Shown: positions 109 to 54,582 of the stretch, one piece after another | Layout: each line of letters begins with the position of its first letter | Position numbering within the stretch: the first letter of the stretch is position 1 | From: Candidatus Babelota bacterium | GTDB taxonomy: Bacteria; Babelota; Babeliae; Babelales; Vermiphilaceae | Assembly: GCA_040878395.1 (NCBI GenBank) | Contig: JBBDMI010000006.1 | Span: 67,145 to 131,144 of the forward strand | DNA length: 64,000 nucleotides | Direction: 5' to 3' | Notes under the pieces: generated by a model | What the model was told of the DNA's origin: nothing | What the model saw: the letters and a program-made list of their open reading frames with translations, nothing else | The model's database searches: none | Program-made: the position numbers and the translations under genes

Positions 109-1326
109 TTAATTACTTAAAAGCATATCTTTTAAACAGTCAACAACCTCATCCATAAGCTGAATCCAATTGTTCGGTTCTTTTTGCCTAAACAATCGCA
201 TACTCGGATACCAAGGAGAATCTGATCGATTTTGCAACCAACGCCAATCGGCCGAATAGGGCAGCAATGTCCAAACCGGCAGATACATGGCACCTGCAAC
301 ATGCACAATAGAAGTATCAGCTGAAATAATCAAATCCATCTCTTTCATGACAGAAACAGTATCCATAAATGGACCATGATCTACATCTAAACCTTCAATC
401 ACCTTAAACGGACAATGCGCATCATATTTATTTAATAACTCTTGGCCATCGCCTTTTTGCAAGCTATACACACTCACGCCTGCAATACGAGTTAACGGTT
501 CAAACACTTCGAGCGGAATACAACGTTGCACATACTTATTCTGCTGTAGATTCGACTTGTTTGAATACCAACAAATACCGACTTTAAAATTTGTATCGTT
601 TTTTAATTGTTCATGCCAATGCCGATCTAATGTTGGATCGGAAAAAAGATACGGCATCGGATTTGGAATTGTCTCAACAGATGTTTTGAAAATACGAGGC
701 AAACTGAACATCGGGACACAAACAGCTCCACTATATATAGGATCTTGCATGGTAATGACTTGATCGATATAAGGACATAATGAAAACAGTTTTTGCAATG
801 AACTATGCGTTTGTACCACAATTTTTTTTGCACCGGCTTTTTTAACGTCATGTACATATCGTAAACATTGGATATTATCACCCATGCCCCATTCACTCAG
901 AAGCACCACCTCTTTATCTTCAAAAGAGCGTGGCGTCAACTCAAATAACTTATATTTTTTGTGAATACGCTCAACAGAACCATATCGCCATTCAAAAAAA
1001 TGAAGCCCTTTTTCATAGTGCCCCAATGTAAGTAATGCTTTTGCGCAACCAAACAAAGCATTTTCATGTTTTGGATCACATTCCAATGCTTTTTTATACC
1101 AATGCACTGCCTGATCACACAAACTCAATTGCAATAAAATATAGGCGATATTATAATTTGCATGCACATTTTTTGGATCATGCACAACTGCTTGCGCATA
1201 ATATGGTAATGCGCGCTCAAAATCATCCTGCTTAATGTACGCAAAACCTTGACAGGTCAAATTGGCTATATCAATTGATGCACACACAAAAGAAAAACTG
1301 CATAACAATAAAAATATATATTTCAT
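109..1326 (-). CDS. TPR-repeat / GT9-like (heptosyltransferase-fold) glycosyltransferase fusion with N-terminal signal peptide
   Basis: ORF 109..1368. TPR-like helices (ALPYYAQAVVHDPKNVHANYNIAYILL, AVHWYKKALECDPKHENALF) are followed by GT9-type motifs (WGMGDNIQCLRYV; ISADTSIVHVAGAMYLPVWTLLP). Start moved to Met15 (MKYIFLLLCSFSFVCA), 4 nt after the stop of the upstream gene. Confidence 0.6.
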   Translation of the reverse strand: MKYIFLLLCSFSFVCASIDIANLTCQGFAYIKQDDFERALPYYAQAVVHDPKNVHANYNIAYILLQLSLCDQAVHWYKKALECDPKHENALFGCAKALLTLGHYEKGLHFFEWRYGSVERIHKKYKLFELTPRSFEDKEVVLLSEWGMGDNIQCLRYVHDVKKAGAKKIVVQTHSSLQKLFSLCPYIDQVITMQDPIYSGAVCVPMFSLPRIFKTSVETIPNPMPYLFSDPTLDRHWHEQLKNDTNFKVGICWYSNKSNLQQNKYVQRCIPLEVFEPLTRIAGVSVYSLQKGDGQELLNKYDAHCPFKVIEGLDVDHGPFMDTVSVMKEMDLIISADTSIVHVAGAMYLPVWTLLPYSADWRWLQNRSDSPWYPSMRLFRQKEPNNWIQLMDEVVDCLKDMLLSN

Positions 1327-1330
1327 AAAC

Positions 1331-2521
1331 TCATGCTTCTTTTTGTGCACACAAAAGAACATCATCAAACAACTCTTTCCAGCGGTGCATCATATCTTTT
1401 TTATGCTCTGAGGCAAAAGCTTTTATCTTTTTGCGCATGCTGAAATAATCAGTGTTTTCAATTTTATGCTGCAAGTCTTGCCATGAATCATAATACACAA
1501 TTAACTCTTTATGATCTTTGCAATACCACTCATTGAATTCAAACGTACGGTTTTCCAGCATACTACTCATTACCGGATGAATCGGCGCACCTTCATCTTC
1601 AAGTTGTTTTAAAAAACTGATTGAAGGAACAAAATGTACTAATCCACGATGAAAATCTTCAAACAAACATAAATTTGACCATTGATACGGCCAATACATA
1701 ATACCTTTAAAATCTGCTATATCATTGGTACCATTATAACGACCGGAATATGTTTTAATATTATTTTTTGTGCATTGCTCATTAATGTAATGCATTTGCT
1801 GTTCGTTTAAGCGTGGATATAAAAACACCGTACTTTCTTTATCAACGTGAGCAGGCACCGACCATTTTGGATCTCGATAGCGATTAGTACCCTCTACGAC
1901 ACCAATCGGCTTAATGGTACGCAATCCAATATCCACTCCTTTTTGCAATGCATGGTACCATTCGTATGGTGTATACGAAACTACAAACACATTGTTTTTT
2001 TTTGTTGCTGTACGAAAGAGTTCATAATATGTTTCATCAGGAAAATCTAACGGCTTATGTGAAGGTGAAAAGAAAAAATCAAATCGATTACACACCCAAA
2101 TAATTAATGGCTTTTTCCAATTATCATTTTGTAAAAAAATACGACTTAATGGTGCTGTATCGGAAGTAATAATTGCATCAAACTGATCAAAGTAATCTTT
2201 ATGTTTTTCCCAAACACGCTGTGCACGTTCAGCGGTTATGTTATACACATACAACCCCGCATTTTGTCCTTCAAAATGTTCCAGCGGTTTGTCAAAAATA
2301 AACCATGGTGTTACATCAATATCAAGATCTTTTGCAACACGATCAACCTCTAAAATACATCCTTTATGAAAACCAATATGCAAATATTTAAGTTTGCGTT
2401 CTTTTTTAGTTTCAACCGAACGCTTTGTTAATTGTTGTTGTCCTTGTTGCATATACCACGGAGTAATCGACATCAATCCAAAATGCATGCATAACAAACT
2501 AACTATTAATTGCTTTCTCAT
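1331..2521 (-). CDS. hypothetical exported/anchored protein (faintly GT-B-like C-terminal half)
   Basis: 396-aa ORF, codirectional and tightly spaced with neighbours. Hydrophobic leader MRKQLIVSLLCMHFGLMSI. No motif I can assign with certainty (WPYQWSNLCLFEDFHRGLVHFVPS is only suggestive). Confidence 0.45.
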   Translation of the reverse strand: MRKQLIVSLLCMHFGLMSITPWYMQQGQQQLTKRSVETKKERKLKYLHIGFHKGCILEVDRVAKDLDIDVTPWFIFDKPLEHFEGQNAGLYVYNITAERAQRVWEKHKDYFDQFDAIITSDTAPLSRIFLQNDNWKKPLIIWVCNRFDFFFSPSHKPLDFPDETYYELFRTATKKNNVFVVSYTPYEWYHALQKGVDIGLRTIKPIGVVEGTNRYRDPKWSVPAHVDKESTVFLYPRLNEQQMHYINEQCTKNNIKTYSGRYNGTNDIADFKGIMYWPYQWSNLCLFEDFHRGLVHFVPSISFLKQLEDEGAPIHPVMSSMLENRTFEFNEWYCKDHKELIVYYDSWQDLQHKIENTDYFSMRKKIKAFASEHKKDMMHRWKELFDDVLLCAQKEA

Positions 2522-2546: not shown

Positions 2547-3386
2547 TTAATGCTCTAAACAATCCAAATCTAAATCCTGCAATAACCATAAACCCATTGC
2601 TTTACGCTGAACACGTGTTTCTTTTTCTGCAGTTTTTTCCTCAATCAATACAACCGGATGAGACAAATTAAATGGTGATTTTGTCAGATCATAAGGCATA
2701 TGATGACCAGTGTGTTTTTCCTGATTCAATTCAGTATCCAAATGAGTCGACATTAATAGAAATTGTGAACCACTTGCTTTCATATTGCGCAATAAATTAC
2801 ATGCATCAGCATAATTTAAATGTGCCAATACATCACGACATATTATCATATCCGCTTGAGGTAGCGGATCTTTGGTACTGTCTAAGCATAAAAAGTGATG
2901 ATTCTCATCTGTAAAATGTTCACGATTTTTTGCGATCATTTCTGGAACAATATCCACACCTAAATAATGACACTTTTTCAAATCAACTGTTTGCATCCAA
3001 TAATAATCACCGCAACCAATATCCAAAATCGTATCTATTTTTAATGTATCACATAATGTAGCAAGTTCATTACGGACTATTTCAGTTGAAGACAAACTTG
3101 AACCTTGACCGGAACGAGATTTGTCACCTAACCAATAATTGGTATGATAAATTTCAGCAAAAACATCGGTCATATTTTTATGCGCAAAATCTTGAGTCAT
3201 TTGATAACGATCCGGTGGTGTCACCATGTGCGACATATGCACATTGCATAATTCTTGATCAGTTTTACTTTTGATCGGAGCAACATAGGTATTTGTTTGT
3301 TTTTCAAATGCTGTATTGCGGCCTACCGTTACCAATCCAAATGCCTGACTTGAAATGAATAATATTATGAATATTTTTTTTTGCAT
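2547..3386 (-). CDS. class I SAM-dependent methyltransferase with signal peptide
   Basis: Motif I ILDIGCGDYYWM and ADMIICRDVLAHLNY. Paralogous to 9799..10470 and 23485..24165. Start set at Met10 (MQKKIFIILFISSQAFG), preceded by AAGGA about 7 nt upstream. Confidence 0.65.
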   Translation of the reverse strand: MQKKIFIILFISSQAFGLVTVGRNTAFEKQTNTYVAPIKSKTDQELCNVHMSHMVTPPDRYQMTQDFAHKNMTDVFAEIYHTNYWLGDKSRSGQGSSLSSTEIVRNELATLCDTLKIDTILDIGCGDYYWMQTVDLKKCHYLGVDIVPEMIAKNREHFTDENHHFLCLDSTKDPLPQADMIICRDVLAHLNYADACNLLRNMKASGSQFLLMSTHLDTELNQEKHTGHHMPYDLTKSPFNLSHPVVLIEEKTAEKETRVQRKAMGLWLLQDLDLDCLEH

Positions 3387-3482
3387 GATTTCATCCTTTT
3401 TATATGTATACATATCTTTATTCGAACATTTTTCGCATTTTTCTAATAGTTTTTTACGTTAATACACCTAGCTTTTTCTTCC

Positions 3483-3619: not shown

Positions 3620-5188
3620 TCATCTAAACTTAAGCTTTTTCATAGCAAGTGCACACATCCCAAGCAAAATCCACAAACAGTAAAATTTACGGATTTGCGT
3701 TGTACCATAGGTACGATCTTTATAATGCACCGGCATATCAACAATTTTTAAATTCAATTTAGCAGCACCAAAAAGCAGATCAAAATCACCAAAAGGATCA
3801 AAGTTGCCAAAAAATGAACGATTACGCGCAATCAATTGATAATCCTCTTTCCACAATACTTTTGTACCACATAATGTGTCTTTTACTCTTTGGCCCAATA
3901 ACCATGAAAAAAGACGACCAAAAAAGTAATTTGCAAAAAAACCTAATAAACGCATTGCACCGGTTTCCATGTTGTATACCAAACGAGAACCATTAATGCA
4001 TTCACCTTTATTTTCAATCAATGCATAATAAAATTTGGGAATTTCTTCCGGTGGAGCGGTTAAATCGGCATCTAAAATCATAACAATATCACCAATAGCA
4101 TAATCAAAACCCAAACGAACAGCATCGCCTTTGCCTTTGCCCTTTTGCACATGAATAGAAATTGATCTATCCGGATATTTTTTTGCAACACGCTTCATTT
4201 CATCCAATGTACCATCAACTGAGTTGCCATCTACAAAAATTAATTCCGTAAACTTTCCCATTTGTGGCGTACGTTTTACCGCAGCTTCGATATTACCTTT
4301 TTCATTCTTACACGGAATCACCACAGAAACGGTATAATCCTGCGCATCACGCTTAATGAACATCGGACGTGCAACAATTGATTGATGCAAACATAAACGA
4401 TTTATGCCAGGAATATGTTTTATGAAAGCGTTAAACAGTGTAGAAATTAACGGGATATATACCGGCAACAACATAAAATGTGATTGGTGTACAACTTGAT
4501 AATTTGAAAGATAAAGAACATGTGCAATATCTTCTTGTGTGAGCCAATTTTTGAATTCTGTTTTTCGACGCAATCCGATCTTTTGTGTTAAACGTAAAAT
4601 AGGTTCCCAAATAGATGAATATGAATCAATAACAATGCGTGTGCCCGCATGACAAAAAGGTTTTAATGATTCAAATAACGCCTGAATATCATACGTATCC
4701 ATAGTAATTGATGAAAGCATAATATAATCAAATGGCTCTTTTTCATCTAAATCTGCAATGGTACCGGTATAAAAATGATGGCGAGAATAAGTTTCCTTAG
4801 CTTCTTGAATCACCATAGGATCCACATCAACACCAACGCCATAACTTGGTTTTACCGCATCGAGTAAATAACCATTTTTGCATTGCAATGCCAAAACACG
4901 CATTCCCTCAGGAATAGTAAACCGATAGAATTTTTTCAATCTATGATGATAATAATGATTTTTTTCAAGCCAATACGAAAACGGTTTATAATCTTCAGGT
5001 ATTTTTTTTAGCGCTCGTTGTTTAGGCACATCTTGATTCAACGAACCTTGGCTCAACGAATCTTGATTCAGCGGATCGTGATTCAGCGGATCGTGATCAA
5101 AATGATGTAACTGATCTTTTATAGGCTCTTTTTTTGTTTTTTGCTTTTCTTGAATTCCCATTACATTCATAACCTTTATGTTTTGCAC
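3620..5188 (-). CDS. bifunctional methyltransferase / GT2 polyprenyl-phosphate glycosyltransferase-like protein (DPM1/GtrB/ArnC-like C-terminal half with TM helices)
   Basis: The N-terminal half resembles a class I MTase (RVLALQCKNGYLLD, FDYIMLSSITMD). The C-terminal half has VSVVIPCKNEKGNIE, FVDGNSVDGT, GKGDAV, ILDADLTAPPEEIP and GSRL, typical of the GT2 DPM1/GtrB type. Hydrophobic segments (LLGFFANYFFGRLFSWLLG, FYCLWILLGMCALAM). No signal peptide. Confidence 0.7.
   Translation of the reverse strand: MQNIKVMNVMGIQEKQKTKKEPIKDQLHHFDHDPLNHDPLNQDSLSQGSLNQDVPKQRALKKIPEDYKPFSYWLEKNHYYHHRLKKFYRFTIPEGMRVLALQCKNGYLLDAVKPSYGVGVDVDPMVIQEAKETYSRHHFYTGTIADLDEKEPFDYIMLSSITMDTYDIQALFESLKPFCHAGTRIVIDSYSSIWEPILRLTQKIGLRRKTEFKNWLTQEDIAHVLYLSNYQVVHQSHFMLLPVYIPLISTLFNAFIKHIPGINRLCLHQSIVARPMFIKRDAQDYTVSVVIPCKNEKGNIEAAVKRTPQMGKFTELIFVDGNSVDGTLDEMKRVAKKYPDRSISIHVQKGKGKGDAVRLGFDYAIGDIVMILDADLTAPPEEIPKFYYALIENKGECINGSRLVYNMETGAMRLLGFFANYFFGRLFSWLLGQRVKDTLCGTKVLWKEDYQLIARNRSFFGNFDPFGDFDLLFGAAKLNLKIVDMPVHYKDRTYGTTQIRKFYCLWILLGMCALAMKKLKFR
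5031..5100 (-). repeat. in-frame 15-bp tandem repeat (~4.5 units) encoding a pentapeptide repeat D/G-P/S-L-N/S-H/Q
   Basis: tcttgattca|acgaaccttggctca|acgaatcttgattca|gcggatcgtgattca|gcggatcgtgatcaa. This translates (minus strand) to HDPLNHDPLNQDSLSQGSLNQD near the N-terminus of the MT-GT2 fusion. Confidence 0.8.
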
Positions 5189-5263: not shown

Positions 5264-6097
5264 TTACGCGTGCAAAGCGTCCTGCAAGAAACGCTTATAA
5301 TAATCAACAGGATTTAAATTTGATGGTTTTCGCGTGACATTATAATCTTTATCATCAAATGCAATAATCTTCTTTTGATATGGTGACTGCCAATGATCAA
5401 AATGACAATACGCCGGTGACAAAATCTTGGTCGGTTCAAAATCAATAAAATAACGATTGATATGACTTTCATCATTTGCCCAAGCAACATAACCTCGTGC
5501 CAAATCAATATGTATACGCTCACTTGCTGTTTGAGTCAACTGTATAAAGGCATCTTTTGTTCCCCCATAAAACGCACCGGCATAATAATGCACTCCCTCA
5601 TTTGCATGCACATATGCGGTGGAAATAGGATTTGCTTCATATGGTTTTATCATATCAAACAAATGCACTGATAATATAGTCGCAACGCGATCAGACAAAA
5701 TTTCATCCCCTACTGCTTGCCCAAATGCCATATCAGCATCAATTGCATACACATAATCTAAATGAGCAAATTTATCTTTATTTTTATAGTATATTTCAAA
5801 ACGCATCATACTATCATATGGCCATCCCATCTGCTCTTGATACACAGTTGTACATTTTTTGTGTTCATAAGGACTATCGGTAAAAACAAAATAAGTTACA
5901 TCATGATTGGATAAAAAATAAGCATCTGCCGAATGTAATAATCTATCAACATACTGAATATAATTACCGGTAGCCATGACACAAAGGCCCACTTTTTTTT
6001 TATCATTAACGAGTATCTTTTGCTCATGTAAAACAAAAGTATGAAAACCCCAAAGACTCATTAATAAACTGGACACTAACAGTATATTTTTTTTCAT
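5264..6097 (-). CDS. GT6-family glycosyltransferase (histo-blood-group ABO / alpha-1,3-Gal(NAc) transferase-like) with signal anchor
   Basis: AWANDESHINRYFIDFEPTKILSPAYC matches the GT6 signature (human GTA: WHDESHLNKYLL..KPTKVLSPEY). DXD-type motif YAIDADMAF. Leader MKKNILLVSSLLMSLWGF. Confidence 0.75.
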   Translation of the reverse strand: MKKNILLVSSLLMSLWGFHTFVLHEQKILVNDKKKVGLCVMATGNYIQYVDRLLHSADAYFLSNHDVTYFVFTDSPYEHKKCTTVYQEQMGWPYDSMMRFEIYYKNKDKFAHLDYVYAIDADMAFGQAVGDEILSDRVATILSVHLFDMIKPYEANPISTAYVHANEGVHYYAGAFYGGTKDAFIQLTQTASERIHIDLARGYVAWANDESHINRYFIDFEPTKILSPAYCHFDHWQSPYQKKIIAFDDKDYNVTRKPSNLNPVDYYKRFLQDALHA

Positions 6098-6470: not shown

Positions 6471-7259
6471 ATGAACATAAAAAAAACCGTATTCATATCG
6501 TTATTATTTATTTTCGCCCAATCACATGCAGTTAAAATAGTCACCACCGGTGCACCAAAATCCGGCATTCAAATACTTGCCAATTGCATAAAAGAGATCA
6601 CCAACATAAAAAAAAGCGCCAATATAAAAGGTGACATGTTGCTCGATGCAAAACAGATGCAACAATATGATTTGATTATAGGAACACCGGTATATAATGA
6701 GCGTAATCTGAATATAATTGCAAAACATAATGCAAAAGTCATATACATCATACGCGATCCACGCGATCAAATTGCCTCTACCGCACAAACCATCTATACT
6801 TATCGCTCTCACATTCCAGCAGCAAAAAATAAAAGTCAAAATCAAATAATAGATGAACTTATCACAAATGGTTCAGCATTTTATGCCTATCAATATCCAT
6901 ACCCTGAGGTTAAACAGGTAAAAGGAATCGTGGATCTTTATAGTTTCTGGCTCCCCTGGATTGAACATCCAAACACAATTGTGGTAACCTTTGAACATCT
7001 CTCGGGCGCATATGGCTCACATGCTCAACAAAAAGAGATCCAACATATCGCCACATTTTTGAATATTCCATGCACGGCACAAAAAGCAACTAAAATTGGC
7101 AACAGCCTGCAAAGTGGCGGCCTGTTTGGACTGTTCAAAAAACAACCGAAAGTTGGCAATTGGAAAAACATGTTTAATGCGCAACACAGAAACAAATGCA
7201 AAAATATTGCAGGTCAATTATTAATTGATCTCGGTTATGAAACAGACGTAAACTGGTAA
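6471..7259 (+). CDS. sulfotransferase (PAPS-dependent fold) with signal peptide
   Basis: 5'-PSB-like TTGAPKSGIQ and 3'-PB-like YIIRDPRDQIAS. C-terminal LLIDLGYE is shared with paralogs at 11129 and 20573. Leader MNIKKTVFISLLFIFAQSHA. Confidence 0.75.
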   Translation: MNIKKTVFISLLFIFAQSHAVKIVTTGAPKSGIQILANCIKEITNIKKSANIKGDMLLDAKQMQQYDLIIGTPVYNERNLNIIAKHNAKVIYIIRDPRDQIASTAQTIYTYRSHIPAAKNKSQNQIIDELITNGSAFYAYQYPYPEVKQVKGIVDLYSFWLPWIEHPNTIVVTFEHLSGAYGSHAQQKEIQHIATFLNIPCTAQKATKIGNSLQSGGLFGLFKKQPKVGNWKNMFNAQHRNKCKNIAGQLLIDLGYETDVNW

Positions 7260-7268: not shown

Positions 7269-7934
7269 ATGCTGCAATTAAAAACGCATAATCTATTCAA
7301 TCAATTAAAAGAAATAATTCCTGACAATATCACGATCGTTGAAGGCGGTGCCTTTCGCGGCCATGAAACCATTGCAATGGCAAAAGCATGGCCGAACAGC
7401 ACTATCTATACATTCGAGCCGGTTCCGGAATTATACAAAATATTACAAGATAACACCGCACGATTTAGCAACATTCATTGCTTTAATCTCGCATTAAGCA
7501 ATCAAAATGGTACGGCACAATTTTGGCCATCTGAACACCCAAAAAAAGTTGGCGTCCATTCACAAGCCGGCTCACTTCTGGCACCAAAAGAACGTTTAAA
7601 ATGGTCAAACATAAAATTCAAAGACCCTTTTGAAGTGGGCACTATCACCTTGAACAAATGGGCAAAACAACAGAACATTAACAACATAGATTTTCTTTGG
7701 CTTGACCTACAGGGCTATGAACTTCCGGTCATGCAAGCTGCCCCTGAAATTCTACAACAGGTAAAGTATCTCTATACTGAAGTGCATTTCGTTGAAGCTT
7801 ATGCAGACCAAAAACAACACACTGAAGTAATTGATTGGATTGAACAACAAGATTTTACCATGATCGGCAAAGACTACCTCAACACCTCCAGCTGGTTTTT
7901 TGGTAATGTATTATTTGAGCGAAATCAATCATAA
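7269..7934 (+). CDS. FkbM-family methyltransferase
   Basis: VEGGAFRGHETIAMAK, TIYTFEPVPELYKIL, NLALSNQNGTAQFW, IDFLWLDLQGYELPVM. These are FkbM (Methyltransf_21)-like. No leader peptide. Confidence 0.7.
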   Translation: MLQLKTHNLFNQLKEIIPDNITIVEGGAFRGHETIAMAKAWPNSTIYTFEPVPELYKILQDNTARFSNIHCFNLALSNQNGTAQFWPSEHPKKVGVHSQAGSLLAPKERLKWSNIKFKDPFEVGTITLNKWAKQQNINNIDFLWLDLQGYELPVMQAAPEILQQVKYLYTEVHFVEAYADQKQHTEVIDWIEQQDFTMIGKDYLNTSSWFFGNVLFERNQS

Positions 7935-8017: not shown

Positions 8018-8512
8018 TTAATGAAAGCCATGCCTTTTCAAAAATGCTTTTAAATAAATATATTTACATGAAGTTTCTCGAATTTTGCAAAAAGAAATTT
8101 CTGTATAAATTGCTTTGACCGTATGCAAAATATCTAAAGATTTTTGCAAAACACAAAGCTCATTACCTTCCATATCAAGCCACATAAAATCAATATGAGA
8201 AATATTATTTTTGGTAGCCCAATCGTTTATAGTGACACACGGAACTTGAATAGGCGTTTTATCAAATGCATGCTCATTCCAATGCAGGACAACCAATAGA
8301 AGAAAAGGTATTTTTCCTGAATAATTTGTAAGTGCATATGGATAACGAATGACATCAGATAAGTTTTCAGTTTCTTTTTCCATTACTTCAAATGAACTGG
8401 GAAGTGGTTCAAAAACATGTACCTCTGCATCAGGAAATATATGTTTTATTCTAATGGTATCTTCACCAAAATACCCTCCCGATTCCAAAACAATAGGAGA
8501 ATACGGCAACAT
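8018..8512 (-). CDS. FkbM-family methyltransferase, short form (possibly truncated)
   Basis: ESGGYFGEDTIRI, VHVFEPLPSSFEVM, YALTNYSGKIPF, IDFMWLDMEGNELCVL. About 55 aa shorter than the paralog at 7269. An in-frame stop lies 9 codons upstream of the ATG. Confidence 0.5.
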   Translation of the reverse strand: MLPYSPIVLESGGYFGEDTIRIKHIFPDAEVHVFEPLPSSFEVMEKETENLSDVIRYPYALTNYSGKIPFLLLVVLHWNEHAFDKTPIQVPCVTINDWATKNNISHIDFMWLDMEGNELCVLQKSLDILHTVKAIYTEISFCKIRETSCKYIYLKAFLKRHGFH

Positions 8513-8727: not shown

Positions 8728-9747
8728 TTAATCAACAAACTTTTTAAAATATTCAATCGTTTTCTGTAAACCATTAATCAAATGAACCTGAGGAGACCAA
8801 TTAAGTTCTTTTCTTGCCAATAAAATATCGGGCTTTCTGCGACATGGATCATCTTTTGGCAATCTTAAATATACAATTTGCGAGTCACTCTGTATTGAAT
8901 GTAAAATCATTTCAGCAAGCTGAACTAAATTATATTCATCAGGATTTCCTAAATTAATCGGACCGGTAAAATCTGAAGCTGTATCGAACATCATAGATAT
9001 GAACCCATCAATTAAATCATCAACATAACAAAATGATCGTGTTTGTAATCCACTACCATAAATAGTTAATGGCTCACCTTTTAATGCCTGCATAATAAAA
9101 TTACTCACGACACGCCCATCTCTAGGGTCCATGTTTGGGCCATAGGTATTAAAAATGCGCACAACCTTAATAGGAACATTATATTGTCTATGATAATCAA
9201 AAAATAATGATTCAGCACAACGTTTGCCTTCGTCATAACATGAACGAATGCCGATCGGGTTAACCAAACCACGATATGTTTCAACCTGTGGATGTACTTC
9301 CGGATCACCATAAACTTCACTCGTTGAAGCCTGCATAATTAGAGCATTATATTTTTTTGCTAATTCAAGCATATTTATTGCACCTAACACGCATGTCTTA
9401 GTCGTAAAAATAGGATCTTTTTGATAATGTGGCGGCGATGCCGGACAAGCTAAATTAAAAATGTAATCGACTTGAATATCCAATGGATATGTAATGTCAT
9501 GATGCTTAAATGAAAAACGCTTATCTTCAAATAAGGACTCAATATTATCTAAACGTCCTGTATAAAGATTATCTACTGCAATCACGTTATAATCTAAATC
9601 AAGCAATCTTTTACACAGATGACTTCCTAGAAAGCCGGCACCTCCTGTCACCAACACGTTCTTTTGTTGCTCTTGCGTATAAATACAAGGAAAGCTAATC
9701 ACACTGATCACAAAAAACAACCATTGTTTATAGTTGTTCATTATCAT
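8728..9747 (-). CDS. uxs: UDP-glucuronate decarboxylase (UDP-xylose synthase) with N-terminal membrane anchor/signal peptide
   Basis: VLVTGGAGFLGSHLC, VDNLYTGR, ASTSEVYGDPEVHPQ, NPIGIRSCYDEGKRCAE, RIFNTYGP, DGRVVSNFIMQALKGEPLTIYGSGLQTRSF. This is close to near-identical with human UXS1 motifs. Leader MIMNNYKQWLFFVISVISFPCIY. AGGA lies upstream of the ATG. Confidence 0.85.
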   Translation of the reverse strand: MIMNNYKQWLFFVISVISFPCIYTQEQQKNVLVTGGAGFLGSHLCKRLLDLDYNVIAVDNLYTGRLDNIESLFEDKRFSFKHHDITYPLDIQVDYIFNLACPASPPHYQKDPIFTTKTCVLGAINMLELAKKYNALIMQASTSEVYGDPEVHPQVETYRGLVNPIGIRSCYDEGKRCAESLFFDYHRQYNVPIKVVRIFNTYGPNMDPRDGRVVSNFIMQALKGEPLTIYGSGLQTRSFCYVDDLIDGFISMMFDTASDFTGPINLGNPDEYNLVQLAEMILHSIQSDSQIVYLRLPKDDPCRRKPDILLARKELNWSPQVHLINGLQKTIEYFKKFVD

Positions 9748-9798: not shown

Positions 9799-10470
9799 TT
9801 ATTTTGTGTTATCAATAAGAAAAATTTGATGCACCGCATTGCCGATTCTAAAATTCATAACTGGTGTTCCATCAATAAAAAACGGTGCTTTTCTTAAATC
9901 GATTTTATGACCACCACCCACTTGAATATCAGGGTTATCACTAGACAAATTATGTGGATACACTTCATTGATAATTAAACAATATTTATATTTCTTTAAT
10001 TGTGGAAGAAAGCGCTTGATATCTTCATTTGGCAAATGTTGAAGCACATGCTTACAAACTAAAAGATCTGCTGACGGCAAATCCATAGTCACTAAATTGC
10101 CAAACTCAAAATGAATATTTGAAGAACCAAATCGCTTTATATTTTTATTAATTACGCTCTCAACAACATCACAGCCAAAGTAATCGATACCATTCCAATC
10201 GATATACCTTGTTGATTCCCAATCACCACAGCCTGCATCCACTACAGATCTGATATTATGTTCACGCATAAATTTTTCTACAAAATGATTATATTCTAAA
10301 CAGTTGGCAAGCAAAGAGCCTCCGCCCGAAAAACCTTCTCCCTGTGCATTTTTGCCCCAGACTGCATTGTGATAAATGTTTGAAAAAACATTTTCATGTC
10401 GATCTGCATTCAAAAGCACGGCTGAACAAATACTGGCAACAAAAATAAGATGAAATTTTACTGTATTCAT
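9799..10470 (-). CDS. class I SAM-dependent methyltransferase with signal peptide
   Basis: VVDAGCGDWESTRYIDW and DLLVCKHVLQHLPNED. Paralog of 2547 and 23485. Start set at the ATG of MNTVKFHLIFVASICSAV, preceded by GGAG 7 nt upstream (the ORF-track start is TTG). Confidence 0.65.
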   Translation of the reverse strand: MNTVKFHLIFVASICSAVLLNADRHENVFSNIYHNAVWGKNAQGEGFSGGGSLLANCLEYNHFVEKFMREHNIRSVVDAGCGDWESTRYIDWNGIDYFGCDVVESVINKNIKRFGSSNIHFEFGNLVTMDLPSADLLVCKHVLQHLPNEDIKRFLPQLKKYKYCLIINEVYPHNLSSDNPDIQVGGGHKIDLRKAPFFIDGTPVMNFRIGNAVHQIFLIDNTK

Positions 10471-10488
10471 TTTTTTCTCCAATATATA

Positions 10489-11076
10489 TTAAGGAACCAC
10501 TGCAACCATTACATTTTGAGGATATTCACCATCATCACCACCAGGAATATAATACACATCGTAATTAGGATTAATCTCTTTAATTTTAGCAATCAAATCT
10601 GCTTGTATTAAACCATCGAAAGCTTCAGTGCCAGCACAATGCATATCATCAATTAAAATAGTATGTGTTTTAATCGGATGCCATGAAATTTGTTCTAGCT
10701 CTTCAATTAATGGACAATTTTTACCACCATCGGCGCGCACTGGCCATACATGCGCATCAAGCCAAAATGTTGCAGGCTTATCCAAATCTTTAATTATATC
10801 CCAAAGGTCTGTCGCTGAACTCCCTTTATATATGGCTACATTTGAATGTGAAGCAAAACGATTTCTTACTTTACGATATGTGCTTTCCTTAAATTCTATA
10901 GACCTAAACTCTTTAAATGCACCAGTTGCTATTGCTTTTTGCAGTCCGTGCCCAGCTGAAGTACCAGTTTCAACAAAATAATAATTTGCATAGGAAGCAA
11001 ACCCTTGTGGACCTATATTTGCTTTACCTGTAGCAAAAACAAGTAACAAAATATATAACATTTTTTGTATATTCAT
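10489..11076 (-). CDS. hypothetical exported protein, possibly methyltransferase-fold
   Basis: 195-aa ORF. Leader MNIQKMLYILLLVFATGKA. YFVETGTSAGHGL, FWLDAHVW and ILIDDMH loosely recall CmcI/FkbM-like MTases. Weak assignment. Confidence 0.3.
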   Translation of the reverse strand: MNIQKMLYILLLVFATGKANIGPQGFASYANYYFVETGTSAGHGLQKAIATGAFKEFRSIEFKESTYRKVRNRFASHSNVAIYKGSSATDLWDIIKDLDKPATFWLDAHVWPVRADGGKNCPLIEELEQISWHPIKTHTILIDDMHCAGTEAFDGLIQADLIAKIKEINPNYDVYYIPGGDDGEYPQNVMVAVVP

Positions 11077-11968: not shown

Positions 11969-12000
11969 ACTTTTCCTTCTTGCATAGACCAACATCAATC

Positions 12001-42592: not shown

Positions 42593-42707
42593 GCCTTAAT
42601 CCTTGTATGAGACTTGTTAATCTTATCATTGAGTGTAACAAGAAAAATAAAATATAAAAATGGCAAGTTAAGTTTTTACGATGAAATAAAAATCATACAA
42701 AGAAAAA

Positions 42708-42732
42708 GCCTTGTGTATTTGTTACACAAGGC
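42708..42732 (-). terminator. intrinsic terminator downstream of the large ankyrin gene
   Basis: gccttgtgta-tttgt-tacacaaggc. On the minus strand it is followed by tttttctttg. Confidence 0.65.
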
Positions 42733-42755
42733 CTTGTAAATAATATCGATTTTAA

Positions 42756-44974: not shown

Positions 44975-45805
44975 TCACCGATTTTCGGCATAGCGTAATT
45001 TTAAATATTTTTGCCAAATATGTGGAAAGACATGAGCAATATATAGATCAAGCTTACGACGTTCATCAGACGAAACTAGCAAAGCATGATGCTTTGTTTT
45101 TTCGCCTTTAGTTAAAGAGGTGTCTTCCTGCTTTTCATACATCGATAAACTTGCTAATTTGTGTTCATCATACTGTGCCATAAAATCGTCTAGATATTCT
45201 GGACTAACATTTAAAAAATTCAGTAATTTTTTAAACACCTGCTCAGGCTGTGTAATCAAATCTTCATAATAAATGAGATGCCTTTTGTCAGGACACCATT
45301 CATCATACAACTTTAAAATATCAAAATAGTTCATGGTTAAGGTATTGTTAAATAGCTCTTTTGCTGTTGGATTATCAAGCGACCTGTTTTTATTTCGCCG
45401 TGAAAGCAGATTAAAAATTCTTGGCAACGCCTCTTTTGGATTACGCACAATCACAATTAAAGTTTCTTGTTGCGAATCGAATGTACCCATCATTTTCATT
45501 TGATCAATATAATGTACTTTCCAAATAGGCAACTTATTATAATCAGTTTGCATATCAAACCAATAACCGAAAGGACAGTTGATTTTTGTTATTTTTTCGG
45601 TACGCATCTCCAACGTCGGACGCTTGGTTAAATATTCAAGACAATAACGCAACCATGTGTTTCCTGAACCGGGAAATGAAAGTAAATAGGTTTTTGGTGC
45701 ATCAGTATAGAACCGAGAAAGATTCATCTGATCAACATCAACCCATTCGCCAACTTTTGCATAAAAAGAACAAAAAATAAGTAGGGTGAATAACATTTTC
45801 TTCAT
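44975..45805 (-). CDS. sulfotransferase-like protein with signal peptide
   Basis: LLSFPGSGNTWLRYCLEYL (P-loop-like PAPS 5'-phosphosulfate site) and VIVRNPKEALPR (3'-PB-like). Leader MKKMLFTLLIFCSFYA. Confidence 0.5.
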   Translation of the reverse strand: MKKMLFTLLIFCSFYAKVGEWVDVDQMNLSRFYTDAPKTYLLSFPGSGNTWLRYCLEYLTKRPTLEMRTEKITKINCPFGYWFDMQTDYNKLPIWKVHYIDQMKMMGTFDSQQETLIVIVRNPKEALPRIFNLLSRRNKNRSLDNPTAKELFNNTLTMNYFDILKLYDEWCPDKRHLIYYEDLITQPEQVFKKLLNFLNVSPEYLDDFMAQYDEHKLASLSMYEKQEDTSLTKGEKTKHHALLVSSDERRKLDLYIAHVFPHIWQKYLKLRYAENR

Positions 45806-45898: not shown

Positions 45899-46996
45899 CT
45901 ATATTTCCAACTGTGCTATTTTTTGGCCTACAGTCATAACGCCGGACATTTGTTCATTATTTAGCAACTCTTGCTCATCAGCTTTAATCATGATACTAAC
46001 CAATTCATAAAAGGTGACCTTTGGTTTCCACTGCAAAATCTTTTCTGCTTTTGAAGCATCACCACGCAATTGCTCAACCTCTGTTGGTCTAAAATATTGT
46101 GGATCTACTGCGACAATTTTATTTCCTGTATCAGCATCAATTGCATAAGCATCTTTACCGTGGCCAAGCCATTGCAACTTAATATCCACACATGCAAACG
46201 CCAAATCAACAAATTCACGGACACTGTGCATCTGCCCGGTCGCAATAACTAAATCATGCGGTCTCTCTTGTTGTAACATAAGCCACATAGCCTCTACATA
46301 ATCTTTTGCATATCCCCAATCACGCTTTGCATCTAAATTACCCAAATATAATGTTTGTTGCACGCCATGTTTTATGCGCACAGCTGCACGGGTAATTTTA
46401 CGCGTTACAAAAGTCTCACCACGCATTGGAGATTCATGATTAAATAAAATACCATTACATGCAAACATGCCATAGGCTTCGCGATAATTTTTTGTTATCC
46501 AATATGCATACAGTTTTGCTGCAGCATACGGCGAACGTGGTGCAAATGGGGTATGTTCATTCTGTGGACACTCAGTCGCATTACCATATAATTCACTCGT
46601 GGAAGCTTGATAAAAACGTACTTTTTCAGTTAAACCTAAAATACGAATAGCTTCTAACATACGCAGTGTGCCAAGTCCATCAGCTTGTGCTGTATACTCC
46701 GGTGTTTCAAATGAAACTGCAACATGACTTTGCGCTGCTAAATGATAAATCTCATCAGGTTGAATTTCCTGAATAACACGGATTAAATTGGTAGAATCGG
46801 TGACATCGCCATAATGCAACTGAAAGCGTCGCTCAGGCGATTCATGTTGATCTTGAAATAGGTGGTCAACACGTGAAGTATTAAATGAAGAAGAGCGCCG
46901 CTTGATGCCATGCACTTCATATCCTTTTTGCAATAACAGCTCTGCTAAATATGAACCATCTTGTCCGGTGACACCGGTAATAAGCGCTCTTTTCAT
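45899..46996 (-). CDS. gmd: GDP-mannose 4,6-dehydratase (canonical, no leader)
   Basis: [75 protein letters not shown] 7 nt upstream of the ATG. Confidence 0.9.
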
Positions 46997-47408: not shown

Positions 47409-48530
47409 TTACAGATGTTTTTTATAACTACCTTGTTTTAATAATTTTACAATGCCACGCACATTTTCCGCAGCATCACGCTTGGTAATCAACAGTGCAT
47501 CATCAACTTCGACAACACACAAATCATCAACACCAACAAGCGCAACCAATTTACCCGGGACATCAACTAAATTATTACGTGCATCAACACCAATAAAATT
47601 CGCATCCAAAGTGTTATACTGTTGTTTCAATGACAAAAACACCTCAATGTTTCCTACATCACACCAAGAAAAATCAACCGGCATAACCGAAACATGCTTG
47701 CTTCGTTCCATAACGGCATAATCAATTGAATCGGCAACAACTTTTTCATAGCTACCAACATTGTCTAAGTAGTTTTTAACACCTGCGAACATTTCCGATG
47801 CTTCTTGTTGAAACTCACGCATAAACGTTGAAGCCTGTGCACAAAAAATACTTATATTCCAAAGTTTATTGCCTTGTTCGATATATTGTTGTGCAACTTC
47901 GAATGACGGCTTTTCACGGAAACGACTCACTTTATATGGCGCTTGTTGCTCTAATGCATCCTGTGGATCAAATTCAATATATCCATAACCGGTTGCAGGA
48001 TAAGTCGGCTCTACACCAAGTAGTACGATATCATCATGCTTTGTTGCATGATCAACTGCATGATCTAAAAAGTCTCTACACTTTTCCCAATCACGTTTTG
48101 GAATAAACGGATCTGCCGGCAGGAAAACAATAACAGCATTTGGATCAATTGCATGGATTTCCATACAACATAATAAAATTGCAGGTCCGGTGTTGCGCGA
48201 ACCAGGCTCAACTAAAATACGCCCAACACGATGCTCAACAGATAACCGAATGTTTTCTTCATGCTTAGCTGTTGTACTTATCCAAATATGATCTTTTGTT
48301 GTCATCGGCGCAATACGATCAATTGCTTGCTCAAGTAACGTAACATCAGAACCTAATGTTAATAGCTGTTTTGGCTTGCATTGTCGACTCAACGGCCATA
48401 AGCGAGAACCATCACCACCGGCTAAAATAACACAATACAGATTTTTTTTATTCATATTAGTTCCGTGTGCTGTAAATGCTGAACATGCGACCAATAAACA
48501 CGCAAATAGTTTTTTACCATGAAATACCAT
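47409..48530 (-). CDS. manC: mannose-1-phosphate guanylyltransferase with signal peptide-like leader
   Basis: YCVILAGGDGSRLWPLSRQCKPKQLL plus an NTP-transferase fold. The start at Met13 (MVFHGKKLFACLLVACSAFTAHG) has AGGAG 7 nt upstream. An internal Met38 (48455, MNKKNLYCVILAGG) would give a canonical leaderless form but has no clear SD. Confidence 0.8.
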   Translation of the reverse strand: MVFHGKKLFACLLVACSAFTAHGTNMNKKNLYCVILAGGDGSRLWPLSRQCKPKQLLTLGSDVTLLEQAIDRIAPMTTKDHIWISTTAKHEENIRLSVEHRVGRILVEPGSRNTGPAILLCCMEIHAIDPNAVIVFLPADPFIPKRDWEKCRDFLDHAVDHATKHDDIVLLGVEPTYPATGYGYIEFDPQDALEQQAPYKVSRFREKPSFEVAQQYIEQGNKLWNISIFCAQASTFMREFQQEASEMFAGVKNYLDNVGSYEKVVADSIDYAVMERSKHVSVMPVDFSWCDVGNIEVFLSLKQQYNTLDANFIGVDARNNLVDVPGKLVALVGVDDLCVVEVDDALLITKRDAAENVRGIVKLLKQGSYKKHL

Positions 48531-49854
48531 ACCAATGCTCCTTTTTTTTGGTAATATAACAAACAACTATTTTCCATATACCAACCGATGTCAATAACAT
48601 TAAAATCGGTTCAAAAACAATACGATATCGACAGCATCCGTCAATACCTGTTGGAAAGCTCAAACTGATCATCATTACTACAAAAAACCAGCCAATTAAA
48701 CTATTCATTTTAAAAACAACATATAATCCAACAATTGTCAGCAATAAACGAATGATTGACCATATCAATTCAAACCATGTAATATTCTCAACCCATTTGT
48801 GTGAAGTGCCGCCCATAATATAGTGATGTATACGTTGAGTCAAAGAACCTGATTGCACAAAAAAAGAATGCGCCATTTTATGTCGCTCCGGCTCAAGTAA
48901 TCTTTTGAGTTGCGTACTATACAAACCAAGCCATGTTTTGCACACATTAACAAACCAAATGCGCACAAATGTAAAAGGATGTTTTTTTAGGTAGGTATAA
49001 AAAATTTTTTTTGCCGGTTGCCACCCCTGATCATCCAAACTATGTTTTCCCGCAAAACGCAACTCTGTTTCTATAATCTCTTGTGGATCTTTTTGTTCAA
49101 CAGAGCCGATTACTTTTGCTAACAAAACTTGATACAGATTCACTTGGGCTGTAGGCGCAAAAGCAAAACAACCGTACTGCACATAATTACGCGTCATATA
49201 CATGGTTAATGGCAAAAAAAATGAAAACAACAATAATAATATATTTTTTATTTTAGAATGATGCATTGCAAAAAAGGTAATAATAGAAAGGCAAACAACA
49301 AACAACATTGCAACTGGTTTTATCAACATTGAAATACCTAAAAATAATCCCGAAAAACACAATGCACTGCTATCATGCGTTTTTAAAAAAGTAAGATAAC
49401 GCTCAACAAACAATAATAAAACAACCAATAAAAGCGTTTCGGCTAAAATCAATTGTGGATACACATAAAATCCAATAGTACCTAAAAAACAAAAAGCAGT
49501 AATGGCAGCTATCATTTTATTAAAAAAAGTAGATGCAATATGCATTAACAATAAAAGTGCACAACTCATAAGTAATATTTGCACGATAATAATTGGTGTA
49601 ATAGTATGCCCAAATAGTGTAAATAGTACCCCCATCACAAATGGGTATCCCACCGGCTGAATAGGAGCACTATTTACACTATTTGGGTCAGTCAAGGTTC
49701 CTGTTTGCGCAAAATGCCAAGCGATTGGATCATAGCCATAGGAATCAACATCATAATGACCCTGCGGTTTTGGCACAAAAAAATATAACGTAGTTGCAAA
49801 AAAAAGATACACTAGAATAAAAACAAATGATTCTTTTTGCACGTTAAGCAACAT
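48514..49854 (-). CDS. polytopic GT-C-fold membrane glycosyltransferase (ArnT/PMT-like)
   Basis: About 10 or more hydrophobic helices. An N-terminal loop with YGYDPIAWHF and PIQPVGYPFVMGVLFTLFG is typical of the GT39/GT83-type. It is the only polytopic protein in the island. Confidence 0.45.
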   Translation of the reverse strand: MLLNVQKESFVFILVYLFFATTLYFFVPKPQGHYDVDSYGYDPIAWHFAQTGTLTDPNSVNSAPIQPVGYPFVMGVLFTLFGHTITPIIIVQILLMSCALLLLMHIASTFFNKMIAAITAFCFLGTIGFYVYPQLILAETLLLVVLLLFVERYLTFLKTHDSSALCFSGLFLGISMLIKPVAMLFVVCLSIITFFAMHHSKIKNILLLLFSFFLPLTMYMTRNYVQYGCFAFAPTAQVNLYQVLLAKVIGSVEQKDPQEIIETELRFAGKHSLDDQGWQPAKKIFYTYLKKHPFTFVRIWFVNVCKTWLGLYSTQLKRLLEPERHKMAHSFFVQSGSLTQRIHHYIMGGTSHKWVENITWFELIWSIIRLLLTIVGLYVVFKMNSLIGWFFVVMMISLSFPTGIDGCCRYRIVFEPILMLLTSVGIWKIVVCYITKKKEHWYGISW

Positions 49855-52006
49855 CTTGCGATCCACCACTATTACATGCCAACGCATCAATTATCAAAGT
49901 TAGCTCTGCAACACGATCTAAACGCTCATATGAAATTGGCGGGTTAAATGTTGGCTGGCTACATGCATCAAAAAACTGTTTTAACAAAGTAGCATGCCCC
50001 TTATCTTGGCAACTGCTTTGTTCATCAAAACCGGTATACAGTCCGTACCCTTTGAGCGTTTTATAATCATCCATAACAATAGATTTACCATCAAAGAAAA
50101 GCTCCATGCGCTCTTTTGGTAAATGCTTACTGCCCACAGAAGTATATAACAATGAACAGACAGACCCATCTTCAAAACTCATTTGCACTGAAAAATTATC
50201 GGTCGGAAAAATATTTTCATTTGCACTGTGCATCGATTCAACAGAAACTGCAATCGGTTTTGTATTGGTTAAATAGCAAAAAAGATCAACAATATGACAT
50301 GCTTCACCAATTATTCTTCCTGCCCCAATATCAGTTTGCACCCAATGATCTTTGGAAATAAATCCTGCATTCATACGGTAATGCATAATCATTGGGCCGG
50401 AACGTTTATCCGTTTCTTTTTTTATTTTTTGTATAAACGGCGCAAATGAACGATTATAATCAACACAAAATGGAGCGTTCGGATACATTTTTAAGAAGCT
50501 ACGCATATCTTGTAACTGTTGCCAATCAGTAACCATAGGTTTTTCTAGAAAAACTGCCTTTCCATGCGATAACGCGTCCATAGACTGAGCTGCATGAAAT
50601 TTGTGCGGAGAAGCAATCACAACCGCATCAACAACATCTTCGGTGAACAAATCAGTATAATCTGAACATGCTTTTGCGGCACCATATACTTTAGAACTAT
50701 TCATTGAAGAAGTAACATCAACATCTGCAACAGCATTAATTTTTGTATTTTTTAATTTTGAAATAGCGGGCATTAATTTAACTTTTGCAAAACCACCGGC
50801 ACCAATCATCCCCACCCGAATCACATCTCTACGCGCAGGAATAAATCTAACATCACATGATTTTTCATCTTTTTTTTCATCACTATGCTCTGTATGTTCA
50901 TCTACATCATAAGCAACTAATACACCCAAGCCATTTTGCTCTCTGATATGTTCATAGGCTTGCGCAATCGTATCAAGAGTTGCTTCCTGCGTTGCTAACA
51001 TTGAAATATCTATTTCATCTTTTTGCAATAGTTGTACAAATGCCTGCATATTACGATTTTCAGTCCAACGTACATAAGGCAATGGATAATCAACTCCTTG
51101 TTGCTCATAGACCGGATCATAACGTCCCGGACCATATGAACATGAAATCTTAAAGTCAATCTCTTTTGAATAAAATGGACTGCGATCAAATTGTAAATTT
51201 ACATCACCAACCAAAACTACTTTGCCTTTTTTGCGCGTTAACTCCATCGCTTGTTGCACAAGGGTATCACCTTGTGCAGCGGCAGTAATAATAGTTGCAT
51301 CAACACCATAATGATGAGTAATATAATCAATTTCCTGCTTGATGTTATCACTTGTAGGATGCAATACCCAATCAGCTCCGGCTTGCTTTGCTAAATCTAA
51401 ACGATCTTCCAGTAAATCAATACCAACAACATTACATCCGGATTTTTTTGCCAACTGCACAGTCAATTGCCCAATCAACCCCAGGCCGATAACACATACA
51501 TTTTCACCCAACTTTAAATCTGCTTGTCGAATACCTTGCAAAGCGATTGCACCAATTGTGGTGATACTAGCTTCTTTTAAATGCGTTTGACTCACCTTCA
51601 CCGTCAAATGTTCCGGCACACAAACCAAGTCTGCATGATGAGCATAACCTGCTCCGGCACACGCAACATAATCACCAATGCGCAACTGTCTCACTTTACT
51701 TCCGACCGCAAGAACACGACCTGAACATGAATAACCTAATGCTTGTGATTCACCTTTTAATTTACTTTTTATTAAAGCAGCAGTGCCTTCAATGCCATGA
51801 GACGCAACCGATTCTAATACTTTTTTTATTTTTGTCGTAGCATTCGAAAACAATGAGTTTTGTTCTGCTTGCGCAATAGTCGCAGATTCAGTGCCTGAAC
51901 TAATAAACGAATAATGCACTGCAACCAAAACATCGTATGCGTCCATCGCAGGTTGACATACCTCTTTTACAACAACTGCACCTTTTTGCAAAAATACTTG
52001 CCTCAT
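49844..52006 (-). CDS. two-domain oxidoreductase: N-terminal MDR/zinc-alcohol-dehydrogenase-like plus C-terminal Gfo/Idh/MocA
   Basis: GYSCSGRVLAVGSKV and VCVIGLGLIGQLTVQLAKKSGCNVVGIDL (MDR Rossmann). Then IRVGMIGAGGFAKVKLMPAI and VVIASPHKFHAAQSMDALSHGKAVFLEKPM (Gfo/Idh/MocA). ATGA overlap with wecBC, with AGGAG upstream. Confidence 0.7.
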   Translation of the reverse strand: MRQVFLQKGAVVVKEVCQPAMDAYDVLVAVHYSFISSGTESATIAQAEQNSLFSNATTKIKKVLESVASHGIEGTAALIKSKLKGESQALGYSCSGRVLAVGSKVRQLRIGDYVACAGAGYAHHADLVCVPEHLTVKVSQTHLKEASITTIGAIALQGIRQADLKLGENVCVIGLGLIGQLTVQLAKKSGCNVVGIDLLEDRLDLAKQAGADWVLHPTSDNIKQEIDYITHHYGVDATIITAAAQGDTLVQQAMELTRKKGKVVLVGDVNLQFDRSPFYSKEIDFKISCSYGPGRYDPVYEQQGVDYPLPYVRWTENRNMQAFVQLLQKDEIDISMLATQEATLDTIAQAYEHIREQNGLGVLVAYDVDEHTEHSDEKKDEKSCDVRFIPARRDVIRVGMIGAGGFAKVKLMPAISKLKNTKINAVADVDVTSSMNSSKVYGAAKACSDYTDLFTEDVVDAVVIASPHKFHAAQSMDALSHGKAVFLEKPMVTDWQQLQDMRSFLKMYPNAPFCVDYNRSFAPFIQKIKKETDKRSGPMIMHYRMNAGFISKDHWVQTDIGAGRIIGEACHIVDLFCYLTNTKPIAVSVESMHSANENIFPTDNFSVQMSFEDGSVCSLLYTSVGSKHLPKERMELFFDGKSIVMDDYKTLKGYGLYTGFDEQSSCQDKGHATLLKQFFDACSQPTFNPPISYERLDRVAELTLIIDALACNSGGSQDVA

Positions 52007-54582
52007 CCTAACTCCTGGCTACGTTCGACATGTGTATAATAGTGTACTTCATCTTCCGGCATGAAAAATTCTAATGAACTTGCAGGCCAATACAGATGTT
52101 TTTTATCAGTTTGCTTTTCTGTATGCAAAATGCCACAAAAATCTAAAACTTTTTTGTTTTGTAAAATTTTCTTATCAATTGCTCTAAATCGTGTATGTCC
52201 AACAAGAAAAACAACGACATCAGCTTTTTGTAAGCCTTCAGTAATTGAAATTGCCTCGTCCGGATAAAGTGCTGTTAATTTTTGCTGATTTAAATGTGGT
52301 TCACACACCATCATATTAATACTGCCATTTTCTTTAACCAAATCTGCAATACGAACCGCAGGTGACTCTCGCATATCATCAACATCAGGCTTATAGGTCA
52401 ATCCCATTAATAAAACATTACATTTTTTTGTAGCTTGATTACACCATTGGCGTGCAGCTTTAAAAATATATTCAACAACCTGTAAAGGACGCCCATCATT
52501 TATGTTACGCGCAGACTGTAATAGCTTTGTTTTTGTATTGAATGTTTCAATTAAAAACCATGGATCAACTGCAATGCAATGCCCGCCAACACCACATGAT
52601 GGTTTTAAAATATTCACACGCGGATGCTTGTTGGCAAGTTCAATAACTTCATAAGGATTCAAACCAACCGCATATGCCATTGATGCAACTTGGTGAGCAA
52701 ATGCAATTTGCGTATCACGAGAACTATTTTCAATAAGCTTTACCATTTCAGCGGTTTTTGCATCGGTTAAATAAATATTACCGGTTACAAATGGTTTATA
52801 TAATTCCTGTGCTGCATATACTGAAGCTTGATTAATACCACCCAGTACGCGATCATTTTCTACTAATTCCTTAAAAATCTTACCCGGCAATACACGCTCA
52901 GGGCAATGTGCAACAAAAAAATCTGTGCCCACAAGTAAACCTGACTCTTGTTGTAGAAATTGTGCCAATTTTTCTGTAGCACCAACCGGAACTGTTGACT
53001 CCAAAATCACAACATCATTTTTTTTAAGCACTGATGCAATTGTCTTGCCGGCACTAAATACATAACTTAAGTCCGCTTGTTTGTTTTCTTTAAATGGTGT
53101 GGGAACTGCAATAATAAAAAAATCTGATTGAGTAATCTTAGTGGTTGCACAAAATCTATCTGTTTGCAAAGCAATTTGTAATTTTTCAAAAAGATCCGGT
53201 TCTTTAATGACCGGCTCACCTTGGTTAATTGCGTCAACACGTTGTTGATCAATATCAAAACCAACGACATCAAAACCTGATTCAGCACACACAATTGAGG
53301 TTGGCAAACCGATGTAACCTAAGCCCAATACGGTAACTTTTTTCATTATTCCCCTTGTTTTACATTTTTCAAAAGGCATATTTTTCATTGAAGACAGATT
53401 GTCAATCTGTCCATTTTCTGCCTGTTTTTTACTCACCGGTAGTTTAGCTTCTTTTTTTAAATGTGTCTTTAAAATTTCCGCTATTTTTTCCGATGCAAAT
53501 CCATCGCCATATATAACAGATGGCAAAGTAGTATCATTTTGCATATAAATGTTCTGCAATGCACTGTTTAATTTTTGTTGATCAGTGCCAACCAACTGTG
53601 CAAGCCCCTCAATCACCCCTTCTTTACGTTCCGTTTTTTCACGCAAAACAATCGTCGGTTTTCCCAAACTTATTGCCTCTTCTTGAATGCCTCCTGAATC
53701 GGTTAATACAAAATCAGCATGACTCAAAAGATATACTAAATCTTGATAAGGCAATGGCTCAGAAACATAACAATTATTCAGTTCCGAAAGACCAATTTCT
53801 TGCAACACATCAACAACATGAGGATTAGGATGAAATGGATATACACAAAAAACATCTTCATAGTTTTGCAAAAAAGTTTGCACCGTTTGCAATACACGTT
53901 TTATACCACCATTGAATGACTCACGACGATGCATGGTCAACAACACCAATTTTTTATTATCCGCTTTGCATTGCTGCACCATTTTTTTTATATGGGATGA
54001 AATTACAATTTCATTTGATACAATTTTATTTTGCATAATGCGTAATGCATCAACCACCGTATTACCGGTACAAAATAGTTTTTGTTCATCAATCTGTTCT
54101 GCACGTAAATTATCTAACGCTAATGATGTCGGCGCAAAATGAAACTGTGCAAAAGTTGAAACAACACGCCGATTCATTTCTTCAGGAAATGGCGCATATA
54201 TATCGTCAGTGCGCAAACCGGCCTCAATATGACCAACCGGAATTTTGAGATAAAATGCTGCCATCGCAGCAGCCATAGTGGAAGTGGTATCACCTTGCAC
54301 TAACACCAATGAAGGTTGTACTTTTTGAAAAACCTCTTTTGTTTTTTGTAATAATGATTGTGTCACATAAAAAAGATCTTGCTTAATCCTCATTACACCC
54401 AAATCAATATCAGGCATGACACCAAATAGATCAAAAACATCTTGCAACAGTTGATCATGTTGCATCGTTGAACATAAAACAACCGGCACATCTGCTTCCT
54501 TTAAAGCAAAATATACTGGTAACATTTTTATACCTTCAGGACGTGTACCAATAATTAAAACAATAGGTGAACTGCTCGCCAT
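52003..54582 (-). CDS. fused UDP-GlcNAc 2-epimerase (WecB) / UDP-ManNAc dehydrogenase (WecC)
   Basis: N-terminal part: VLIIGTRPEGIKMLPV, VQGDTTST, GHIEAGLRT, HRRES, DSGGIQEEA. C-terminal part: VTVLGLGYIGLPTSIVCAESGFDVVGFDID, CPERVLPG, GVGGHCI. A single uninterrupted 859-aa ORF. Confidence 0.85.
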   Translation of the reverse strand: MASSSPIVLIIGTRPEGIKMLPVYFALKEADVPVVLCSTMQHDQLLQDVFDLFGVMPDIDLGVMRIKQDLFYVTQSLLQKTKEVFQKVQPSLVLVQGDTTSTMAAAMAAFYLKIPVGHIEAGLRTDDIYAPFPEEMNRRVVSTFAQFHFAPTSLALDNLRAEQIDEQKLFCTGNTVVDALRIMQNKIVSNEIVISSHIKKMVQQCKADNKKLVLLTMHRRESFNGGIKRVLQTVQTFLQNYEDVFCVYPFHPNPHVVDVLQEIGLSELNNCYVSEPLPYQDLVYLLSHADFVLTDSGGIQEEAISLGKPTIVLREKTERKEGVIEGLAQLVGTDQQKLNSALQNIYMQNDTTLPSVIYGDGFASEKIAEILKTHLKKEAKLPVSKKQAENGQIDNLSSMKNMPFEKCKTRGIMKKVTVLGLGYIGLPTSIVCAESGFDVVGFDIDQQRVDAINQGEPVIKEPDLFEKLQIALQTDRFCATTKITQSDFFIIAVPTPFKENKQADLSYVFSAGKTIASVLKKNDVVILESTVPVGATEKLAQFLQQESGLLVGTDFFVAHCPERVLPGKIFKELVENDRVLGGINQASVYAAQELYKPFVTGNIYLTDAKTAEMVKLIENSSRDTQIAFAHQVASMAYAVGLNPYEVIELANKHPRVNILKPSCGVGGHCIAVDPWFLIETFNTKTKLLQSARNINDGRPLQVVEYIFKAARQWCNQATKKCNVLLMGLTYKPDVDDMRESPAVRIADLVKENGSINMMVCEPHLNQQKLTALYPDEAISITEGLQKADVVVFLVGHTRFRAIDKKILQNKKVLDFCGILHTEKQTDKKHLYWPASSLEFFMPEDEVHYYTHVERSQELG

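Follow-up and report, generated by a model that had tools for sequence, protein, structure and literature searches.

Dependentiae are a phylum to which the organism studied here, a protist parasite known from a Candidatus Dependentiae MAG (WD055 locus tags), belongs. Literature searches on Dependentiae and on symbiont glycan genes found no description of the locus reported below. The GT32 genes were nearest to the Legionella effector SetA (paralogue profile against 8x4j, E 1.2e-17) and to clostridial-type toxin glycosyltransferase domains, the sulfotransferases to cytosolic SULTs among PDB entries, and the GT2 genes to bacterial enzymes (paralogue profile against K4CP, 2z87, 1.9e-11). Two further genes resembled A075L of chlorovirus PBCV-1, which is assigned to CAZy family GT114 (PMC11571054). 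Giant viruses encode enzymes of the same kinds without signal peptides, whereas those of the Dependentiae locus carry export signals; Sec-type signal peptides are the main and most telling feature of the locus, and were missing from the first-pass annotation.

Extent and gene content of the locus

The window, a stretch of 64,000 nt, contained a genuine island of glycan enzymes at 109-54582, with 52 CDS (45 on the minus strand), a coding share of approximately 94% and a median same-strand intergenic gap of 27 nt. For 38 of the 52, evidence from HMMs, the PDB or predicted folds supports a role as glycosyltransferase, sulfotransferase, methyltransferase or nucleotide-sugar enzyme. The coordinates proposed earlier for a large glycan-tailoring island held within the window; the start at 109 was an artefact of the window edge. 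Including approximately 9.5 kb beyond the left edge, the whole sugar-coat locus measured roughly 64 kb. It is a very large, uncharacterised glycan pathway, probably handling fucose, xylose and ManNAcA, with methylation and sulfation, as had been suggested.

Glycosyltransferases

Pfam searches confirmed the seven GT2 genes and the methyltransferase-GT2 fusion, the six GT32 genes (Gly_transf_sug) and the GT6 gene of the first-pass annotation. Features marked SP carry a predicted signal peptide; minus and plus denote the strand.

109..1368, minus, TPR repeats (TPR_2 38.9 bits) with C-terminal, weakly GT9-like GT-B domain, SP
3620..5188, minus, methyltransferase-GT2 fusion, polyprenyl-phosphate sugar synthase-like, Glycos_transf_2 86.9 bits, Methyltransf_31 28.4 bits, no SP
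5264..6097, minus, GT6 alpha-1,3-Gal/GalNAc-transferase homologue with DxD motif (DADM), Glyco_transf_6 145.8 bits, SP or anchor
15399..16334, minus, GT114-like (A075L-type) putative xylosyltransferase, SP
16469..17464, minus, GT32/SetA-like DXD glycosyltransferase, 55.2 bits, SP
18249..19202, minus, GT32/SetA-like, 51.1 bits, SP
19492..20481, plus, fucosyltransferase-superfamily GT-B protein, by fold of AlphaFold model, SP
21472..22407, minus, GT32/SetA-like, 58.4 bits, SP
22404..23360, minus, GT114-like putative beta-xylosyltransferase, SP or anchor
25861..26739, minus, probable GT-A-like domain, weak TIGR04440 glycosyltransferase domain match (E 1.9e-4), SP
26764..27615, minus, GT2, Glycos_transf_2 58.7 bits, SP
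27627..28511, minus, GT2, 56.6 bits, SP
28589..29524, minus, GT32/SetA-like, 58.5 bits, SP
29598..30404, minus, GT2, 55.1 bits, SP
30401..31234, minus, GT2, 51.2 bits, SP
31968..32795, minus, GT2, 71.3 bits, SP
32897..33787, plus, paralogue of 25861-26739 (38% identity), Glycos_transf_2 19.3 bits, weak and below cut-off, SP
33799..35220, plus, GT2 (67 bits) with C-terminal 25861-like domain, SP
35221..36144, minus, GT32/SetA-like, 53.4 bits, conserved core by synteny, SP
36189..37130, minus, GT32/SetA-like, 40 bits, conserved core, SP
37140..38672, minus, GT2 (69.6 bits) with C-terminal 25861-like domain, conserved core, SP

The fusion protein has internal and C-terminal hydrophobic segments, and its top NCBIfam similarities, none of which reached the curated cut-offs, were to AglJ (1.5e-23), ArnC and a Dol-P-hexose transferase. 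The C-terminal extensions of 33799-35220 and 37140-38672 align with each other. The profile of 25861-26739 matched the GT2 paralogue profile towards its C-terminal end, and 25861-26739 is homologous to the C-terminal domain of 37140-38672 (hhalign probability 98.8%); no sequence relatives of 25861-26739 were found in the PDB. The GT32 protein 36189..37130 shares 84% identity with its orthologue in locus L010.

The GT6 protein matched the human ABO transferases (E approximately 1e-31) and Bacteroides BoGT6a (2e-30). Two genes formerly called GT47 were reassigned to the GT114-like, giant-virus type: 22404-23360 matched A075L (8avq, 8asa, 8q8i; phmmer against PDB, E 2e-28), 15399-16334 is its paralogue (35% identity, E 3e-65), and neither gene reached the Pfam cut-off for Exostosin (15399-16334 scored 26.1 bits with Exostosin_GT47, against 33.4). 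For 19492-20481, once labelled GT11-like, the fold is that of a fucosyltransferase: the AlphaFold model (pLDDT 94.0) gave 36 Foldseek matches in PDB at E<=1e-3, all of them fucosyltransferases (AtFUT1, FUT8, POFUT2, NodZ), and its BFVD matches included giant-virus fucosyltransferases. No HMM match and no PDB sequence match was obtained. The call of TPR-GT9 for 109..1368 stood for the TPR repeats, to which the PDB match was limited; Glyco_transf_9 scored 19.7 bits, below the cut-off of 22.

Sulfotransferases and methyltransferases

6471..7259, plus, PAPS-type sulfotransferase, Sulfotransfer_1 35.3 bits, PKSG and RDPRDQ motifs, SP
11129..11998, minus, sulfotransferase, Sulfotransfer_1 40.3 bits, motifs present, SP
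20510..21373, plus, sulfotransferase, Sulfotransfer_1 45.1 bits, SP
24263..25045, minus, borderline sulfotransferase, Sulfotransfer_1 22.1 bits against cut-off 22, SP
44975..45805, minus, sulfotransferase, Sulfotransfer_1 36.4 bits, Sulfotransfer_3 30.4 bits, SP
2547..3413, minus, class I SAM methyltransferase, Methyltransf_25 42.2 bits, SP
7269..7934, plus, FkbM-type methyltransferase, Methyltransf_21 83.2 bits, no SP
8018..8512, minus, decayed FkbM paralogue, Methyltransf_21 52.7 bits, premature stop and internal deletion
9799..10482, minus, class I SAM methyltransferase, Methyltransf_12 32.1 bits, SP
12001..12750, minus, class I SAM methyltransferase, Methyltransf_23 43 bits, SP
12769..13476, minus, weak methyltransferase-like, Methyltransf_24 20.9 bits, below cut-off 26.3, SP
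17439..18221, minus, FkbM methyltransferase, Methyltransf_21 61.8 bits, SP
23485..24165, plus, class I SAM methyltransferase, Methyltransf_12 31.5 bits, SP

All five sulfotransferase calls were recovered with Sulfotransfer_1, one of them at the borderline. Where at least ten methyltransferase-like proteins had been counted, eight domains reached the Pfam cut-off and one was weak; none of the proteins matched DUF579, and the earlier DUF579 call for 25204-25833 was not confirmed. In tblastn, the alignment of 8018..8512 continued past the stop codon and contained an internal gap of approximately 19 aa.

Nucleotide-sugar enzymes, conserved core and insert

8728..9747, minus, UXS (UDP-glucuronate decarboxylase), Epimerase 166 bits, N-terminal hydrophobic segment
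38677..39825, minus, GDP-mannose 4,6-dehydratase (Gmd), GDP_Man_Dehyd 528 bits, SP
39892..40899, minus, GDP-fucose synthase (Fcl), Epimerase 214 bits, SP
41009..44804, minus, lineage-specific four-gene insert: two small proteins, each with SP and TM segment (41009-41290, 41299-41613) and no family match; a 317-aa protein (41639-42592), SP; a 682-aa ankyrin protein (42756-44804), Ank_2 301 bits, SP
45899..46996, minus, second GDP-mannose 4,6-dehydratase (Gmd2), GDP_Man_Dehyd 522.7 bits, no SP
47409..48566, minus, ManC (mannose-1-phosphate guanylyltransferase), NTP_transferase 126 bits, ManC_GMP_beta-helix 51 bits, SP
48514..49890, minus, GT-C glycosyltransferase, PMT_2/ArnT-like, PMT_2 46.2 bits, eight hydrophobic segments
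49844..52006, minus, zinc-ADH/MDR and Gfo/Idh/MocA fusion oxidoreductase, GFO_IDH_MocA 83.3 bits, ADH_zinc_N 79.1 bits, with NCBIfam similarities, no SP
52003..54582, minus, WecB-WecC fusion (UDP-GlcNAc 2-epimerase and UDP-ManNAc dehydrogenase), Epimerase_2 322 bits, UDPG_MGDP_dh_N 179 bits, no SP

Pfam agreed with the earlier assignments of both Gmd genes, Fcl, ManC, WecB-WecC, the oxidoreductase and the GT-C protein, and the UXS assignment was secured by the match of residues 25-337 to human UXS1 (2b69, E 1.5e-106). Gmd2 begins its Rossmann fold right at the N-terminus. By synteny, the conserved core starts with WecB-WecC. The order ManC-Gmd-Fcl-Gmd was conserved in other Dependentiae (L022 and L058), where the block 41009-44804 is absent, which bears out its reading as an insert; for 41639-42592, described before as AAA+-like, no family match was obtained.

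The description of the locus as Golgi-type is only partly apt: it suits GT6 and UXS, and not the SetA-like GT32, SULT-like sulfotransferase, bacterial-type GT2 and giant-virus GT114-like genes.

Families without assigned function

1331..2521, minus, ambiguous N-terminal segment, no Pfam/NCBIfam match
10489..11076, minus, no Pfam/NCBIfam match, SP
13566..14603, minus, no Pfam/NCBIfam match, SP
14545..15402, minus, DUF6492 protein, 25.6 bits, above cut-off 22.9, SP
25204..25833, minus, no relevant Pfam match at E<=10, SP
31343..31930, minus, paralogue of 25204-25833 (45% identity), no Pfam match, SP

Five families had no or weak HMM matches (1331, 10489, 13566, 25204/31343 and 25861/32897). The first gave tblastn matches of 160-167 bits in Dependentiae loci L015 and L016, and its 90%-identity cluster has a second member, P0133 (JGI). 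The relative of 10489..11076 in L039 is fused to a methyltransferase, and on viral contigs this family repeatedly adjoins GT32. The pair of 13566..14603 and DUF6492 is conserved in Dependentiae and Chlamydiae, with orthologues of the former in L006, L039 and L045; its profile found nothing meaningful in the PDB.

Wzx module beyond the window edge

The locus was extended leftward with contig SRR27977663_216160 (L079/L080), which is 100% identical to the window across a 3509-nt overlap. Besides GT2, AsnB and two GT4 proteins, the extension encodes a flippase of the Wzx type and the second GT-C protein of the locus, which is OST-like:

1..21, minus, first seven codons of a 245-aa GT2 gene, the rest off the left edge, start of the Wzx module, no SP
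-6933..-5593, plus, Wzx/Polysacc_synt flippase (Pfam)
-9487..-8096, 463-aa GT-C-fold protein, the second polytopic protein
left of window, remainder of the module: NTP_transf_2, AsnB-like amidotransferase, GT4, GT4-like, class I methyltransferase, 86-aa ORF

The top fold matches of the 463-aa protein were all GT-C, with the oligosaccharyltransferases AglB, STT3 and PglB ranking first. The window itself held neither Wzx, Wzy nor OPX, nor any gene for an ABC transporter or for an initiating phosphoglycosyl transferase, and 48514..49890 was its single polytopic protein, both as first described. The claim that export and polymerisation genes are lacking did not extend to the contig; the missing exporter was an artefact of the window edge. 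The same locus continues leftward with a Wzx flippase.

Signal peptides and proposed site of assembly

Sec-type signal peptides were predicted on approximately 44 of the 52 proteins, and UXS, ManC, Gmd and Fcl are among those that have one. The minority without them includes Gmd2, the WecB-WecC fusion and the oxidoreductase, as well as the Wzx module. That so many enzymes, among them makers of activated sugars, bear predicted export signals argues that assembly of the glycan probably takes place mostly outside the bacterial cytoplasm. The alternative of an arsenal of exported enzymes, raised by the first-pass annotation, pointed in the right direction in this respect. In the best reading, which we rate at even chances, a lipid-linked primer would be synthesised and flipped, and would then be elaborated outside the cytoplasm by the predicted exported enzymes using host-derived nucleotides.

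In homologues clustered on giant-virus-like contigs, signal peptides were predicted in none of 63 GT32, 22 GT114-like and 11 10489-family proteins. Among the best 150 cluster representatives, P0408 alone had the Gmd signal peptide, which was found again in most Dependentiae orthologues. Signal peptides were kept in Dependentiae and Chlamydiae relatives; that of Fcl recurred in most orthologues, and that of ManC was likewise recurrent.

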